This document shows, one piece after another, positions 10,027 through 16,304 of a DNA stretch of 24,222 bases (positions are counted from its first letter, which is position 1; every line of letters starts with the position of its first letter). The position numbers were made by a program, and so were the translations under genes. Source of the DNA: a virus (lineage: Duplodnaviria; Caudoviricetes). The notes beneath the pieces were generated by a model, which saw nothing but the letters and a program-made list of their open reading frames with translations, searched no databases and had not been told where the DNA came from. Location of the stretch: positions 1 to 24,222 of the IMG/VR virus record IMGVR_UViG_3300027798_000222; one strand, given 5' to 3'.

Positions 10027-10393
10027 ACGCATTAAGAATGCCGTCGTTTTCTGCCAGTGGCAGCAAAACCTACAAAGGCCCACGCAGAGCCAGCCTCGTC
10101 AAATCTGCGTTGCTTTCCCCGGTATGAACTTCGCAGGAGCAATGGGCATCCTTGTCGTGTTCATCCTCGCCGGCATCGTCGTGATTTGCGCGGGCATCGG
10201 CGGGAAGCGGTAATCGTTTCCGCCGTAAGGCTGCGGCCTGTAAGCGTTTTTCCAGCGCGGTAATTGAATTTCCGCCGAGCAGGAAGTGAGCGGCAAAGGA
10301 TAGCCAAAAGAAAGCAAGGAAAGAATGGGAAAAGCAAAAGCCCCCCCGAAAAGTTGAACCGCTACCGCGCGGAAAAGTGCAAGAAAGGAAGAA

Positions 10394-10552
10394 AGAAAAC
10401 CGCAGCGCTCTCGATTCAGTAGGCTGGGCGCTATTCCAGCTGCGTGGTTTCACATAGGCCGGACTCGCCGGTTCACGAGGCAAGGCATTGCTGCCAGCCT
10501 GCGGCAGTGCTTGTCGCCGTCTCTACTGAATCGAAAACGCTGTTCGTTTTCT
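10394..10552 (-). ncRNA. Long structured element (candidate ncRNA)
   Basis: TCGATTCAGTAG 10411-10422 pairs with CTACTGAATCGA 10523-10534; flanking pairs are G-U only on the minus strand. Confidence 0.4.
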
Positions 10553-10638
10553 GTCTTTTGCTGAGCCGGTAGGTTGGGCGTTCCCTGCGTGCTCCCGTAA
10601 CGAAGTTCGGCGCGAAGCCTGCCCGTTTTTCGCTGAGT

Positions 10639-10811
10639 ATCGGGGCAAAGAAAAACCCGCTCAAAGGTTGCACTCGGCGGGTTCGTCTCTCCTTTTGCTC
10701 GAAAGGTAAGCGTTCAGCGGTGCCTTGCGGCGTGCTAAATTATGAAAGTCGTCTCGCTCGCGTGCAACTGCGAACGTGTGGAGCATCGGCCAAGCGCGGG
10801 CACTTGGCAAG
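10639..10811 (-). promoter_or_regulatory. Promoter-leader-terminator unit, copy A
   Basis: Minus strand: TTGCCA-N17-GATGCT, leader, hairpin AACCCGC..GCGGGTT plus U tract; shares 22- and 23-nt blocks with copy B. Confidence 0.55.
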
Positions 10812-10888
10812 AACTTTCTGCGCTCTCAATTCAGCGGGCGGTCTGCGCAGCTTGTCTTGCCTGAGCACGGGCCGGGCATTGTTCGGAG

Positions 10889-11038
10889 GATGTTCTCTGA
10901 ATTGTGCGCGGCAGGACTCGAACCTGCAAGCCCGCCATGAGATGCAAACCCATTGGGCAGCACGTTTCGCATGGTTGCATACCAGCTACTATGCACCGCG
11001 TTTGCCAATTTCGCCACACGCACAATTCAAAGAACATC
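10889..11038 (-). ncRNA. tRNA-Leu-like RNA (core 10903-11023) with extended acceptor helix and aberrant anticodon and variable arms
   Basis: Acceptor GTGCGTG/CGCGCAC, D arm TGGCGAAATTGGCAAACGC, T arm GCAGGTTCGAGTCCTGC, no CCA. Confidence 0.7.
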
Positions 11039-11156
11039 AACCCCGGCGCGTGTCTTTGAAACCCTCGCCGGAACTGCTTCGCTGCCGAGCCGGAGCAATA
11101 CCGGATGAGCAGCGGGACGGTTCGCTGCCAGTCAAGCTCGTTGCCGTTGCCGAAGC

Positions 11157-11276
11157 ATCGGGGCAAAGAAAAACCCGCAGGCGCGGCAACGCACTGCGGG
11201 CTTCCCTGTGGAAAGTTTTGCATCGCATTGCCGTGCGAACGCGAGCAGTAAAAGCCAAGCGCGAGCACTTGGCAAG
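11157..11276 (-). promoter_or_regulatory. Promoter-leader-terminator unit, copy B
   Basis: Minus strand: TTGCCA-N17-TTTACT, leader, hairpin CCCGCAG..CTGCGGG plus TTTTTCTTT. Confidence 0.55.
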
Positions 11277-11281
11277 CGAAA

Positions 11282-11497
11282 TTATTCCGGCGCGTGGCCT
11301 GCCTTACGCCATTGATGCGGCGACACGGGCCGCACAGCGCGCGAGCATGTGCGGCATTTCTTCGTCCGCTTGTCAGGCACGCCAGTCGCGCCGTGGGCTG
11401 CGTAGCCGCATGGGATGATGAGCATGGGGCCGCTCATGCCCGTCACGACGTGTGCCTTTTCTCCCGCTCGAAATCGTAGCCAGTTTGGTGTGCTCAT
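11282..11497 (-). CDS. Small hypothetical protein with CxxC
   Basis: MSTPNWLRFR... 71 aa, divergent from the array. Confidence 0.4.
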   Translation of the reverse strand: MSTPNWLRFRAGEKAHVVTGMSGPMLIIPCGYAAHGATGVPDKRTKKCRTCSRAVRPVSPHQWRKAGHAPE

Positions 11498-11557
11498 GGG
11501 CCGAGCACGTTGCCGCGCATCGCCCGCGATGGCAAGGCAAAAAAGTTTTAGATTTAT

Positions 11558-11590
11558 TTTGACACGGGGCGGAGTTGCGTTTATCGGTGC
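11558..11590 (+). promoter_or_regulatory. Candidate promoter driving the cassette array
   Basis: TTGACA at 11559-11564 after an AT-rich tract; -10 is weak. Confidence 0.4.
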
Positions 11591-11608: not shown

Positions 11609-11941
11609 ATGATAACATGCCCCTGCTGTAATGCCCGATTGGATGTAGATCTACCGCCCGACCGAGAACAGGCAAATAACCTCGTGCCAGAAACGGCGCA
11701 ACCGGCAGAGTCCGGTTCGCTGTGCAGCGACTGGGTAGCGGAACTGGGAGCCGTGCAAACTCAACTCGAAGACGCATGGACCGCGCTCTGCAAGCAGGAC
11801 TGGGGCGCGGCCACGCAGAATGTCTTCGATGTCAGGGCGAGCGTGACGAAGCTCGTGGAATCAGTGCGGGGCCATTCCGCTACCGCGGGCGATGAGCGAC
11901 AGCCTCCGCGCCCTGTGCGCCAAATTGGAGGACAGCCATGA
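11609..11941 (+). CDS. Cassette 1 hypothetical protein
   Basis: 110 aa, CPCC N-terminus; cassette inverted repeat GGTAGCGGAA 11734-11743 / TTCCGCTACC 11875-11884. Confidence 0.65.
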   Translation: MITCPCCNARLDVDLPPDREQANNLVPETAQPAESGSLCSDWVAELGAVQTQLEDAWTALCKQDWGAATQNVFDVRASVTKLVESVRGHSATAGDERQPPRPVRQIGGQP

Positions 11942-11975
11942 ACGCGGAGGATGTTCGCTCCATGCCATGTTCTGC
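11878..11975 (-). repeat. attC site (cassette 2), 98 bp
   Basis: Minus: GCAGAAC ATGGC ATGGAGCG AACATCCTCCGCG...CGCGGAGGCTGT CGCTCAT CGCCCGC GGTAGCG. Confidence 0.8.
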
Positions 11976-12171
11976 GTCGGCGCCGAACCGGAAGTGTATT
12001 TATTGTAAAGGGAAATATGAGCGAATCCAGCGGTGCCTCGTCTGCATGATCCACTTCGGCACTGGAGTCTGGACTCCGGCCACAAAGAGGACGCGCAAGA
12101 AACGCCAGCCGACGCAGAACGGGGAAGTCTCCGACACCGCCCAAAGCGGCGCATCCAATACGAGCCGATGA
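11938..12171 (+). CDS. Cassette 2 hypothetical Zn-finger-like protein
   Basis: CIYC...CLVC; ATGA coupling; inverted repeat 11969-11981 / 12108-12120 (13 bp). Confidence 0.6.
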   Translation: MNAEDVRSMPCSASAPNRKCIYCKGKYERIQRCLVCMIHFGTGVWTPATKRTRKKRQPTQNGEVSDTAQSGASNTSR

Positions 12172-12296
12172 GCCTACACTGCACACAATGCGATCGGAAC
12201 ACGGACTGCGGCATCTGCCCGCGCTGCGCAAGTAACCTCGCGCCCGAACCCGCGCGTCCAGACAAGGCGGTGTTCGCGAGCACTGACTGGGTAGGT
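12114..12296 (-). repeat. attC site (cassette 3), 183 bp
   Basis: Minus: ACCTACC CAGTC AGTGCTCG CGAACACCGCC...GGCGGTGTCGGAGACT TCCCC GTTCTGC. Confidence 0.7.
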
Positions 12297-12470
12297 GCGC
12301 TGGCGACACGCTGGGAGCGGAGACTGGCTGAGAGCAGCGGGACAACACGCGACGCTCTTGACTGTGGGCGAATACTCCAACTCAGAGAGTGCTGCGATGA
12401 ACTCCGCGCGGAGATGGAAAGCGCACCTACCGATGAAGCTCACCCGCTGACGGGGGACAAAACACAATGA
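12168..12470 (+). CDS. Cassette 3 hypothetical protein
   Basis: Start MSLHCTQC..CPRC at ATGA overlap; inverted repeat 12290-12301 / 12420-12431 (12 bp). Confidence 0.65.
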   Translation: MSLHCTQCDRNTDCGICPRCASNLAPEPARPDKAVFASTDWVGALATRWERRLAESSGTTRDALDCGRILQLRECCDELRAEMESAPTDEAHPLTGDKTQ

Positions 12471-12551
12471 ACACGCCCGCACTTCCAAATCAAAGCGGTG
12501 CTCACGCTGACAGCCATGACCGGCAGTTAGTGGTGCAGCGCCTTGTTCGGC
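12425..12551 (-). repeat. attC site (cassette 4), 127 bp
   Basis: Minus: GCCGAAC AAGGC GCTGCACC...GGTGAGC TTCATC GGTAGGT. Confidence 0.8.
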
Positions 12552-12721
12552 TATTGACTCTTGTGGAGCGGACATTCGTGGGCGACAAAGCAATCTCCGC
12601 GTGGGATAAGAATGAGCGTGCGATGCGGAAGAAATACGGCGTGCTGGCGTGGGGCACTTATGTCCCGATGCCAGCGGGGGAGCACCACTGGACAATGACC
12701 GTGGAGCGGACACTGAATTAG
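12467..12721 (+). CDS. Cassette 4 hypothetical protein
   Basis: 84 aa, ATGA coupling; inverted repeat 12545-12553 / 12719-12727. Confidence 0.6.
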   Translation: MNTPALPNQSGAHADSHDRQLVVQRLVRLLTLVERTFVGDKAISAWDKNERAMRKKYGVLAWGTYVPMPAGEHHWTMTVERTLN

Positions 12722-12825
12722 CCGAACGTCGTCTTCAGCGACGGCGCGAACGTAAAAAAACCGTGAATATGGAACAACCTATCGAACAACCGAAACCCGC
12801 CGTTCGCTCCAGTAAGCTGGTAGAT
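12721..12825 (-). repeat. attC site (cassette 5), 105 bp
   Basis: Minus: ATCTACC AGCTT ACTGGAGC GAACGGCG...CGCCGTC GCTGAAG ACGAC GTTCGGC. Confidence 0.7.
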
Positions 12826-13014
12826 GACTGGGAGCGGCGCTACGAAATAGCACACAGGGCCGAGATAAAGCTCCGCGATGACATAACCGCACTGAGGCGC
12901 GAACTGACCATCGTGAGCAGAGAGCGGGCGAGACTGTATCGCGAATACAGAGCCGCAAAGTCATCTACCGATGAAGCTCATGGACTGGCTGACAAAAACC
13001 TCTCGAAACCCTGA
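12763..13014 (+). CDS. Cassette 5 coiled-coil hypothetical protein
   Basis: GTG 12763 or ATG 12769 start; inverted repeat 12819-12829 / 12959-12969 (11 bp). Confidence 0.6.
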   Translation: MNMEQPIEQPKPAVRSSKLVDDWERRYEIAHRAEIKLRDDITALRRELTIVSRERARLYREYRAAKSSTDEAHGLADKNLSKP

Positions 13015-13082
13015 AACCCCTATGACAATCCCAACCGTAGAAAACACACATGAAGCCAGTTCCATGCAGCGCCTGGTTAGAG
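12963..13082 (-). repeat. attC site (cassette 6), 120 bp
   Basis: Minus: CTCTAAC CAGGC GCTGCATG GAACTGGCT...AGCCAGTC CATGAGC TTCATC GGTAGAT; two extrahelical bases. Confidence 0.9.
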
Positions 13083-13471
13083 GCTTCGTTCGTAGAATCT
13101 TTCGGTGGGTAGATGTTGCCATCCGTGAGCGCGACCAACTCGCCCAATACGCTCGTGAGCTAGAGTCCTTGCGGCGGCGGCGGGCGAGAGCGGCGCACCT
13201 CGCAGCACAGGCTGAGAAGGCAGCGGCCAACATCCGAAAGCGTGGACGCTCAGGATACATGGACCTCGAAAGCCGAAGCTACAAACGCTGGCGCAAATGC
13301 CGCGACAATTCCGAAGACGCAATCCGGCGGTGGCGGGAGGCGGGTAACGCGGCGAGCGAAGAACTCGCGCGCAAATTGGAAAGCGCCAAAGCCTCTAACG
13401 CAGAAGTGAGCGACCGCCGCGCTCACGCTCCAGAAAACAAAACAGGCGCGAACGGCGGTTCGCTCTACTGA
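13022..13471 (+). CDS. Cassette 6 basic helical hypothetical protein
   Basis: Likely start MTIPTVEN; inverted repeat 13076-13086 / 13389-13399 (11 bp). Confidence 0.6.
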   Translation: MTIPTVENTHEASSMQRLVRGFVRRIFRWVDVAIRERDQLAQYARELESLRRRRARAAHLAAQAEKAAANIRKRGRSGYMDLESRSYKRWRKCRDNSEDAIRRWREAGNAASEELARKLESAKASNAEVSDRRAHAPENKTGANGGSLY

Positions 13472-13481
13472 CTGGTTAGCC
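13393..13481 (-). repeat. attC site (cassette 7), 89 bp
   Basis: Minus: GGCTAAC CAGTC AGTAGAGC GAACCGCCG...CGGCGGTC GCTCACT TCTGC GTTAGAG. Confidence 0.85.
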
Positions 13482-13484
13482 ATT

Positions 13485-13706
13485 ATGAACACCGAAAGAG
13501 ACAACTGGAAGGACGTGACGGCGGAGGATGCGACCGATTCGGAACTGCGCCTCGTCCACAAAATCAGCGGCCCAAAGCCCGACTGGATGGACGCCGCGAA
13601 CTGGCGCAACAACATGAGGGCGTGCGCGAAGGACATCCGCCAGCACGTCGCGCTAATGGCTAACGATGGAACTCACGGACAGACCACTCACAACCCGACC
13701 ACATGA
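13485..13706 (+). CDS. Cassette 7 hypothetical protein
   Basis: 73 aa; inverted repeat 13475-13485 / 13654-13664 (11 bp). Confidence 0.6.
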   Translation: MNTERDNWKDVTAEDATDSELRLVHKISGPKPDWMDAANWRNNMRACAKDIRQHVALMANDGTHGQTTHNPTT

Positions 13707-13843
13707 GCACACCACTACGACACGGCTGCGCAGATCATATCTCAAATCCACAAGAGGACTGCGAATACTGCAAGGCAAGTAACCGCGTGCTTGAAGCGGC
13801 GCGTTCGAGTGAGGGGGCTGTTACGTGCAGTGACTTGGCAGCG
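13658..13843 (-). repeat. attC site (cassette 8), 186 bp, R'' core degenerate (GCC)
   Basis: Minus: CGCTGCC AAGTC ACTGCACG TAACAG...CTGTC CGTGAGT TCCATC GTTAGCC. Confidence 0.75.
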
Positions 13844-13987
13844 GAACTGGAAGCCGCGCTAGTGCGGCTGGGAGAGCTGAGACAAGGCACGTCCGAAGTA
13901 TGGGGGTGGGATGAAGAATGGACGTGTGTGCAAACTGCGCTGAGTAACGCGCTGGATCGGGAACGGAGCCGTTCCGCTACCGACTAA
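13703..13987 (+). CDS. Cassette 8 hypothetical protein (related to cassette 1)
   Basis: 94 aa, ATGA coupling; inverted repeat 13837-13847 / 13971-13981 (10 of 11 match). Confidence 0.6.
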   Translation: MSTPLRHGCADHISNPQEDCEYCKASNRVLEAARSSEGAVTCSDLAAELEAALVRLGELRQGTSEVWGWDEEWTCVQTALSNALDRERSRSATD

Positions 13988-14100
13988 GCTCACCTACCCG
14001 CTCCGGCGGAAACGGTGGAGCGCACGAAAACCAATCTATGAAAACAAACACATCGAACGCAGAACAACAGGAGCGGGTTAGGTGCAGCGCCTGGTTAGGG
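13975..14100 (-). repeat. attC site (cassette 9), 126 bp
   Basis: Minus: CCCTAAC CAGGC GCTGCACC TAACCCGCTCC...GGAGCGGGTA GGTGAGC TTAGTC GGTAGCG; textbook 5/6-nt spacers and two extrahelical bases. Confidence 0.92.
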
Positions 14101-14238
14101 CGCTTCGTCCGCACTCACGCATGGGCATTTGCACTTGGAGCGTCACTCGGAGTAATCGGGGTGAATTGCTACGAGTGGCGATACTGGGCCGTCTTCGTGC
14201 CGACACTAATCGGCGTGCTCCTGCGCCCTAACAAGTAA
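14038..14238 (+). CDS. Cassette 9 small membrane protein (2 hydrophobic segments)
   Basis: 66 aa; inverted repeat 14094-14103 / 14223-14232 (10 bp). Confidence 0.6.
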   Translation: MKTNTSNAEQQERVRCSAWLGRFVRTHAWAFALGASLGVIGVNCYEWRYWAVFVPTLIGVLLRPNK

Positions 14239-14244
14239 TTATAC
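14226..14244 (-). other. attI-like recombination site
   Basis: Minus: GTATAAT TACTT GTTAGGG, an L(7)-N5-R(7) simple site with no attC arm, at the end of the array. Confidence 0.55.
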
Positions 14245-14265
14245 GACTCAACTCAATACCGAAAA

Positions 14266-14517
14266 ATGAGCAAGTGGAGCACAATCAAAAACATACGCCG
14301 CGCGAGTCTAAAAGCTAGAGAGCGCGTGAACATCCGATGGAACCGCGTGCGCGCGGAGCAGGCAAAGATGGACGCAGCGCCGATGCCGTCACGCCGCATC
14401 GTGGAGCGGCACGTCGTCATCCGCGATGAGTGCCGCGTGCTCGAGGCTGTGTTTTACGCGGACGACCGGCCATGCGATATTCGCCGGAAGCTACGGACGC
14501 TGAAAGGCGTTTGGTAG
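14266..14517 (+). CDS. Basic hypothetical protein
   Basis: 83 aa, Arg-rich, directly after the array. Confidence 0.55.
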   Translation: MSKWSTIKNIRRASLKARERVNIRWNRVRAEQAKMDAAPMPSRRIVERHVVIRDECRVLEAVFYADDRPCDIRRKLRTLKGVW

Positions 14518-14519
14518 AG

Positions 14520-15011
14520 TCAATCGAGAAACGTAATCGTCACGCCGGGCGCTGCCTTGTCATAGCTGCGCGAGGACTGCACGGGCCACAGTAGCGTATC
14601 GTCCGCTACTACGCCAGCCCGTTCAAGCGCGTGCCATAGCGCATCGCAAATTGCCGAGAAGTCGCGCCGCCGTCTGTCCTCGGCAACGTAGTCAATCCGC
14701 ACGTTGCACGGTACCGCGATTGGCTCGCCGTGGAACTGCGTCTTGATTTGCCGGATGGCCTCCGCGCGCCAGTCGGCGAATGCTTTCTTCGGGAAGCTCT
14801 TACCCGTCTTAGTTCGCCCCATGTTATTCTTGCCGCCTCGCACCTGCCCTGTCAGCCGCAATACAAGCCTCGGCACGTCCGCACCGCGCGGCGCAACCGA
14901 AGCCGCTGGCGGGGCGGTGGCGAGCGCAGGCGGGCACTTCGGGCACGCGCGGCCAATGTAGTGTTCGCCGCAGCGATGGCACAGGCGGGCGTTGGCAGGC
15001 AGGGTAGTCAT
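14520..15011 (-). CDS. rusA: RusA-like Holliday junction resolvase with N-terminal Zn finger
   Basis: KNN...DRRRRDFSAICDALWHALERAGVVADD motif; start MTTLPAN at ATGA overlap. Confidence 0.75.
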   Translation of the reverse strand: MTTLPANARLCHRCGEHYIGRACPKCPPALATAPPAASVAPRGADVPRLVLRLTGQVRGGKNNMGRTKTGKSFPKKAFADWRAEAIRQIKTQFHGEPIAVPCNVRIDYVAEDRRRRDFSAICDALWHALERAGVVADDTLLWPVQSSRSYDKAAPGVTITFLD

Positions 15012-15871: not shown

Positions 15872-16012
15872 ATGCCATACACACCCTCGCCCTGCAACTG
15901 CGCGGAATGCCGCGCCAACCGCCGCCGCAATGCGCGGCTCACCATGCGCCTCGCGCCGCTGCTCGTCGCCACTGCCGCCCTTGTGGGCTGGCTCATCCTT
16001 CGCTGCAAATAA
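15872..16012 (+). CDS. Small Cys-rich membrane peptide
   Basis: MPYTPSPCNCAEC plus hydrophobic C-terminus. Confidence 0.4.
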   Translation: MPYTPSPCNCAECRANRRRNARLTMRLAPLLVATAALVGWLILRCK

Positions 16013-16031
16013 CTGCCAAGCTCACCGACAA

Positions 16032-16304
16032 ATGACTATGAGAAACATGACCGCCGAGGAAGCGAAAATGTTCGCGGAGTTCGTGCGCTCCGAAATGGCA
16101 ACAGGCGAGTCGCTCAATATGCACCCTGGCATAAGCCTGCGCGACTGGTTCGCGGGGCAGGCTGACGTGGCAATTTATGAGCCTCTGCAAACGCTCAAAG
16201 CGAAGCTCTCTCGACAGCCGACAATCAGCGAATTGGCCACTTACGTCGCGGAAATTAGGACGATTGAGGCCGACGCCATGCTCGCCGCAAGGGAGGCCAA
16301 GTGA
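16032..16304 (+). CDS. Phage hypothetical protein (GxSLRDWFAGQA motif family)
   Basis: HPGISLRDWFAGQA...ADAMLAARE. Confidence 0.65.
   Translation: MTMRNMTAEEAKMFAEFVRSEMATGESLNMHPGISLRDWFAGQADVAIYEPLQTLKAKLSRQPTISELATYVAEIRTIEADAMLAAREAK

Follow-up and report, generated by a model that had tools for sequence, protein, structure and literature searches.

A stretch of 24,222 nucleotides from a virus of the class Caudoviricetes, which forms the whole of record IMGVR_UViG_3300027798_000222 (completeness estimate 44%) and is called the window here, carries a chain of attC-type recombination sites and nine short open reading frames (ORFs) at positions 11609-14238. It is highly probable that this chain represents a phage-borne integron-type array of nine cassettes, the genes of which lie on the attC sites' bottom strand and are locked in frame at the crossover point; the cassettes would likely be moved by the integron integrase IntI at AA|C and likely be expressed as an early operon with coupled translation, driven by a putative promoter at 11559. 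Judged by sequence comparison, the array is a real and actively varying integron variant with reversed and frame-locked genes, and the phage is likely reshuffling its early genes via an integron integrase with translation left unbroken.

In integrons, bottom-strand selectivity is held to place the genes on the top strand under the cassette promoter (Pc), with the newest cassette first. A sequence-only reading of the window had noticed the opposite arrangement, with the attC top strand on minus and all nine ORFs on plus, and had interpreted the loop of the attC site as the cassette's own translation start and the newest cassette as the one farthest from the promoter. The observation is confirmed by the analysis described here and the interpretation is supported, with the amendments given below.

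attC sites and strand polarity

Nine bodies succeed one another from 11734 to 14232, each starting with G(G/T)T (GGC in one) and terminating in the reverse complement of its own first 9-13 bases, so that complementary R''/R' ends of 9-13 bp are present in 9/9 bodies. This chain of nine bodies with inverted ends stands against a maximum of two in 200 dinucleotide shuffles. Inverted R boxes bearing the AAC/GTT triplet are accompanied by paired L boxes with 5-6 nt spacers; in six of the nine sites (at 11878, 12425, 12963, 13393, 13658 and 13975) the L box pairs 7/7 with one base looped out of the plus 3' arm, and attC3 (12114-12296) fits the same bottom-strand geometry by eye. The bottom strand is recognised by an extrahelical base in the arm facing the one with the recombining AAC (PMC5027507). 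In the window this base sits on the L'' arm, the 3' one on plus, which makes plus the bottom strand, as the sequence-only reading had it.

The first site is a half-site (11676-11740, minus) consisting of the right arm (L''/R'') without a cognate left arm, followed by body 1 (11734-11884), which has 10-bp inverted ends (GGT...ACC) and is related to body 8. The other eight sites likewise have their top strand on minus. attC2 (11878-11975) has a 7-nt left spacer and contains the ORF2 start at 11938, and attC3 (183 nt) codes in its loop for the CxxC...CxxC N-terminus of ORF3. The starts of ORF4 (12467), ORF5 (12763/12769), ORF6 (13022) and ORF9 (14038) lie inside attC4 (12425-12551), attC5 (12721-12825, with a degenerate left L box), attC6 (12963-13082) and attC9 (13975-14100), respectively. 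attC7 (13393-13481, 89 nt) is without an internal start codon, and attC8 (13658-13843, 186 nt) has GGC as its R'' box and a loop coding for the Cys-rich N-terminus of ORF8.

Long loops contain an internal in-frame AAC and then a common linker (N-L-x-P-E-P-A-R-P type), placed behind interchangeable Cys-rich modules. Positions of this AAC and linker in the window are 11677, 12233, 13780 and 11941, which are possible secondary crossover points. GGT...ACC ends in place of GTT...AAC, with both ends changed, are carried by the bodies at 11734-11884, 12290-12431, 12819-12969 and 13837-13981, where the in-frame codon becomes Thr.

Strand polarity was controlled by a scan with a 17-base arm motif, which gave 28 loci in viral contigs and 127 loci in bacterial genomes (9/64 parts), 80 of them with flanks. 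One detector was applied to all sources and the coding strand was assigned by a crude amino-acid score over 67 distinct site-plus-body units. Bacterial cassettes were coded on the top strand in 30 of 32 cases, viral cassettes on the bottom strand in 28 of 32, and the three scored from the window were all on the bottom strand. Bacterial arms, when viewed from the bottom strand, belong to the same sequence family as the window arms, with C as the commonest looped-out base in both (19/30 canonical bacterial sites of this arm family). In a chromosomal integron of Verrucomicrobiota (G250:C29), intI occupies the bottom strand and the genes the top strand at 6/6 sites, and the array of Tetrasphaera phage TJE1 is canonical by the same detector, with the bottom strand of its three sites on minus and the annotated genes on plus. 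Since the bacterial, Verrucomicrobiota and TJE1 controls are canonical, the inversion is a property of these phages and not a misreading of attC, in agreement with the strand assignment of the sequence-only reading.

The exact left-arm 16-mer was found at 10 loci in viral contigs, none of which was an array of this kind by the detector. Viral contigs hold both layouts, as three loci (L018, L020 and L038) are canonical top-strand cassettes, and DNA methyltransferase-like genes, named from motifs, are frequent as inverted cassettes (L019, L035, L037 and L041). Inverted insertion by top-strand recombination (PMC5027507) was considered as the cause of the layout and rejected, since gene and attC would flip together.

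Predicted translation across the crossover

All nine ORFs lie on plus, that is, on the bottom strand, and eight of them enter the next site, which differs from the canonical promoterless cassette with an ORF on the top strand that ends before a non-coding attC. Each of the nine meets the A(A/C)C that closes its body in frame 0, and eight read through this triplet to end in the next site, whereas the right-arm G(G/T)T is met in mixed frames. A frame-lock script was given 16 array-bearing sources, 13 of which yielded 40 cassettes, 39 of them scorable. Twenty-four of these ORFs cross the triplet, all 24 in frame 0, and 15 stop before or at it; the frames at GTT are distributed 15/7/15. Starts inside attC were found in 29 cassettes, and 21 of the 29 overlap the frame-0 stop by four bases, compared with 2/30 for the equivalent stop/start overlap at canonical attC sites.

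The frame lock, a rule missed by the sequence-only reading, implies that the attC left arm would encode the C-terminal tail and stop of whichever gene precedes it, in a locked frame, and the loop the start of the next gene. The ORF3 family illustrates this arrangement, with 13 homologues and, when cluster members are included, 23 proteins. Their core is kept up to T/N in 22/23 (one has S) and is then continued by 17 different tails, and a single tail type was found behind both Thr- and Asn-ending bodies. Two further loci (L179 and L180, 30% matches) proved unrelated to the ORF3 set and were dropped. Substitutions in body 3 are biased to third codon positions of the plus frame, and 15 of the 23 differences between the ORF1 leader and its counterpart in the relative L174 fall in third codon positions.

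The start codons listed in the earlier reading as lying inside attC loops are indeed there, in seven of nine ORFs, and so are the frames through L''/R'' with the peptides CSDWV, VQRLVR, MQRLVR and CSAWLG. Its general statement that the ORFs start inside the loops goes too far, because ORF1 starts at 11609 ahead of the half-site and ORF7 at 13485 just past its site. The idea that the loop is the cassette's own start and N-terminus holds for the loop-borne starts, but loops are not fixed to one body, as the same right arm is paired with different loops or bodies in related cassettes.

Cassette variation among relatives and populations

The relative L181 agrees with the window in the region upstream of the array and in the gene downstream of it, with three cassettes compared with nine. 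Its likeness to the array extends from the C at 12120 to the ACC at 12431-12432, corresponding to attC3 and the downstream body between other neighbours, and begins again with the AAC at 14230. Two cassettes are present in L176, whereas L174 has a different first cassette and joins the window exactly at the in-loop AAC at 11941, a junction matching the GWT consensus of secondary sites (10.1101/2022.09.11.507474).

At least half of the array's words are present in 18 public runs, nearly all of them freshwater metagenomes, and contigs from such populations differ at the same points. A 302-base contig of run X11 follows the window at 14203-14232, departs from it for about 234 bases of new sequence, the beginning of which resembles an attC left arm, and returns to it at 14222-14259. 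Runs X17 and X8 hold an identical new left arm behind 14232, alongside contigs with the direct junction. The region downstream of the array, referred to below as the platform, is joined at 14229-14232 by three different sequences, and the left arm of attC8 is joined by other bodies at 13661-13665. The variant at 14232 fits a cassette gained or lost at the 3' end, the contigs giving no direction. That cassettes move as units, crossing over at G|TT (AA|C), is seen solely by comparison of L181, L176 and population contigs. The relatives and the extra cassette at 14232 uphold the proposal that the attI end is distal to the promoter.

The attI-like platform and the integrase

An attI-like simple site (14226-14244, minus) with the crossover AA|C at 14232, a 5-nt spacer and a degenerate L box marks the start of the constant platform. 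Constancy from this AA|C onwards, together with the extra-cassette variant, points to a putative attI at the growing end of the array. The 14232 junction resembles the array junctions of intI-bearing phages, and a conserved platform gene (14266-14517, plus, 83 amino acids) stands where other phages carry intI. With at least two attC sites and no neighbouring intI, the window belongs to the clusters of attC sites lacking an integron integrase (CALINs); the attI-like site is nevertheless kept.

An intI gene beside attI, as in a complete integron, is absent from the window, present in the viral loci L039-L042 and truncated in L044. In one viral locus a full IntI lies directly behind the array on the same strand, the intI start overlapping the stop of the last tail. 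The L023/L039 IntI passes TIGR02249 with 347 bits against a cut-off of 265. Of six phage IntI loci, five show this layout, the array being immediately upstream of intI and co-oriented with it; intI is truncated in one of the five, and the remaining locus ends at the contig edge. In L044 (7989-8249), an array and an attI-like junction occur with intI reduced to an 86-residue ORF, likely a step in integrase loss. The window phage looks like one that has kept attI and has lost, or never had, intI.

IntI above the cut-off was detected in 116 of 401 Verrucomicrobiota genomes, which shows only that a source in trans may exist. The four phage IntIs group on a single branch (100/100) relative to Verrucomicrobiota IntIs. 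As the phage IntIs had been collected by their similarity to one member of the set and Verrucomicrobiota served as the single phylum of comparison, no claim of a separate lineage is drawn from this tree.

Proposed mechanism and alternative explanations

On plus, a cassette consists of left arm, loop, right arm and body, delimited by the C of A(A/C)C. As read from the sequence, the start codon and N-terminus are usually placed in the loop, with the gene running on through the right arm and body. The next triplet is crossed as an in-frame Asn or Thr codon, and the tail and stop come from the left arm of the next cassette, often with an ATGA overlap with the next start. Any order of cassettes would give intact, coupled genes, and new cassettes would enter at the promoter-distal end. 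The integrase would be supplied in trans by the host, another phage or an unassembled part of the genome, and homologous exchange between shared arms would form a second route that swaps loops and bodies.

A bolder version, to which about an even chance is given, sees a phage integron lineage of its own, with its own IntI branch, attI and cassette pool. The recombination site would serve as start, linker, tail and stop, and the integrase would assemble proteins from loop, body and tail modules and build coupled early operons; the strand flip would wall the pool off from the Pc-driven cassettes of the host while the chemistry stays the same.

Several observations weigh against the proposal of an integron with reversed, frame-locked cassettes. 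Site 1 is defective, having a good right arm without a matching left arm; the L box of attC5 pairs 4/7 only; attC3 and attC8, at 183 and 186 nt, exceed the published attC range of 57-141 bp (PMC5027507); and minimum-energy folds of several sites show no clean hairpin. The crossover triplet is ACC, not AAC, in 4/9, a form rare elsewhere (1/35 viral and 0/30 bacterial sites); second-position triplet changes are tolerated by IntI1 (PMC2811028). The ATGA overlap is present at 4/8 window junctions, three further junctions have gaps (7, 13 and 50 nt), and ORF4 stops before site 5. Top-strand scoring was obtained in 4/32 viral cassettes, a consensus promoter scan left the putative promoter at 11559 below its pass, and PHROGs and Pfam scans returned no name or above-cut-off family for any of the nine ORFs. 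No tyrosine recombinase (PF00589) was found in this 44%-complete record and no integrase above the cut-off in five other array-bearing viral records of 32-81% completeness, and in L015 a partial intI is found at the opposite side of its array. Different bodies stand behind the left-armless first site in different relatives, and a second class of breakpoints occurs just past the right-arm R'' box (12295, 12552 and 13838) and inside loops. These breakpoints are unexplained by bottom-strand excision alone; homologous exchange is possible because the arms are shared over 50-60 bases. They are read here as probable secondary routes.

In the leading alternative, judged unlikely, the array would be IntI-born and now mainly reshuffled by phage homologous recombination between attC arms, the integrase being dispensable. 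This would suit the lack of intI in the window record and five others, the four different bodies found in relatives behind a first site that has no left arm, the breakpoints at shared right-arm ends and within loops, and the RusA-like gene near the array. However, neither the additional cassette at 14232 nor any of the three bodies joined to the platform has more than the R box in common with it, too little for such exchange; different left arms begin exactly at the C, and complementary body ends are kept even in the GGT/ACC variant.

Considerably less probable is a mirror-image arrangement, in which a phage recombinase uses the minus strand and cuts the plus-strand G|TT, so that the cassettes are conventional and the hairpin asymmetry alone is reversed. 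The breakpoints directly past the plus-strand R'' box (12295, 12552 and 13838) could be taken in its favour, as could the looped-out base of plus, which is mostly C where the usual extrahelical base is G (PMC5027507), but canonical bacterial sites, too, most often loop out C (19/30). Frames are mixed at the R'' box and fixed at AAC, the unit shared with L181 begins at the C of the upstream triplet, the constant platform begins at AA|C, and the intI of related phages has the plus-strand, 3'-end position that it takes in canonical integrons.

That the plus ORFs are fortuitous frames antisense to ordinary or ORF-less cassettes acquired from a host, with a minus-strand Pc or no expression, is scarcely credible: short ORFs without a family match and a stop-free minus frame in some bodies would agree with it, yet it is contradicted by the frame lock (9/9 and 24/24), the stop/start overlaps, the conserved protein families, the third-position bias, a stop in the mirror frame of L178 and recognisable genes such as DNA methyltransferases in the same orientation in other phages.

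Genes, promoter and genomic setting

The reversed array stands at the head of the early region of the phage genome, with tail-like and lysis genes on the left side of the window and genes for helicase, methyltransferase and DnaB on its right side. ORF1 (11609-11941, plus, as are all that follow; 110 amino acids) begins with a Cys-containing leader and takes in the half-site, body 1 and attC2's left arm, its stop overlapping the ORF2 start (ATGA). ORF2 (11938-12171, 77 amino acids) contains body 2 (11969-12120, 13-bp inverted ends), ORF3 (12168-12470, 100 amino acids) body 3 (12290-12431), and ORF4 (12467-12721, 84 amino acids) is associated with body 4 (12545-12727), stopping one codon short of the crossover triplet. 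ORF5 (12769-13014, 81 amino acids) is associated with body 5 (12819-12969) and ORF6 (13022-13471, 149 amino acids) with body 6 (13076-13399), the tail of ORF6 spanning nearly the whole of attC7. ORF7 (13485-13706, 73 amino acids) starts within body 7 (13475-13664), ORF8 (13703-13987, 94 amino acids) contains body 8 (13837-13981), and the hydrophobic ORF9 (14038-14238, 66 amino acids) contains body 9 (14094-14232) and takes its stop from the attI-like platform. Atlas leads for ORF3 are all below 0.9, one of them a zinc ribbon; no relative of ORF6 was found in viral contigs, and none of ORF4 outside its own cluster.

The putative early promoter (11559-11587, plus) has a perfect -35 TTGACA behind an A/T tract. 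The TTGACA noted in the sequence-only reading is present and is conserved in three relatives (L174, L176 and L181), although its -10 (TATCGG) is weak and the scan was not passed. A search for a Pc-type promoter on the minus strand gave a 9-of-12 match at 14855, which is at chance level, and the cassette genes face the opposite way. A single RNA run (X19) holds three low-depth, unstranded contigs, which carry no information on strand or expression. Transcription would start from 11559 and translation would proceed through the attC arms.

In the host search, a tail-region protein matched 1 of 401 Verrucomicrobiota genomes at 33%, and DnaB gave matches below 30% to cultured phages. The region 10330-11500 is mostly non-coding, with duplicated segments of 25 and 43 bases and two long-range inverted repeats, partly kept in L176; Rfam over the window returned only a weak tRNA match with an insert (10903-11023, minus), where ARAGORN made no call. 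The motif TTTGACACC occurs at 41, 479 and 4482, shortly 5' of the structural-region gene starts at 60, 501 and 4501, and is a possible late-promoter motif. A solitary attC-like left arm (16008-16035; TAAC, 6 nt, GCTCACC) precedes the gene at 16035 in a second early operon, and the N-terminal peptide of this gene (MRNMT.EE.KM) is found inside an attC loop in L177 and fused to another C-terminus in L181. It may be that attC loops acquire 5' ends from ordinary phage genes.

Comparison with known systems

Bottom-strand, frame-locked cassettes were not found described in the literature searched, a search that did not extend to most subscription journals or to the supplements of PMC9892861, where further phage CALINs are listed that might contain arrays of this type. 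The phage CALINs of Qi et al. 2023 (PMC9892861), that of phage TJE1 among them, are close in setting, as they are attC clusters in phages without an adjacent intI, and phage attC sites were shown there to be substrates of IntI1. Divergent attC sites in P12002L are noted in that paper, and no inverted, frame-locked design appears in the text covered.

Treponema-type inverted-integrase integrons (PMC4889954) resemble the phage arrays in that intI is transcribed in the direction of the cassette genes. There, intI is flipped relative to attC and the genes are on the top strand, whereas here the position of intI is normal and the genes are flipped relative to attC; with intI on the bottom strand in five phage loci, the arrays do not belong to that class. 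ORF-11 at attI1 (PMC8876359) is also translated across a recombination site and couples the next gene, but serves the first cassette only. Synthetic protein-coding attC sites (PMC7439510) use attC as a peptide linker by engineering, whereas every junction is coding in this natural array, which thus offers natural examples of protein-coding attC sites previously engineered only.

The occurrence of loops, arms and bodies in many combinations within one lake population gives a handle on cassette genesis, and phages would gain a site-specific route to mosaic early genes. Such arrays will be misannotated by software built on the assumption that genes lie between attC sites that are non-coding.

With canonical integrons, both mobile (class 1) and sedentary chromosomal ones such as G250:C29, the phage array shares the attC arm family, the extrahelical base, the complementary R''/R' ends, the AA|C crossover and a simple attI-like site, and related phages have a bottom-strand intI beside attI. 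It differs in bottom-strand genes that appear to start in attC and to be translated through it, in the frame locked at the crossover, in a predicted promoter at the far end with the attI-proximal cassette last, and in an intI that, in related phages, is co-oriented with the cassette genes and downstream of them. The same integron chemistry thus appears to serve the opposite layout, with a grammar that keeps any order of cassettes translatable.

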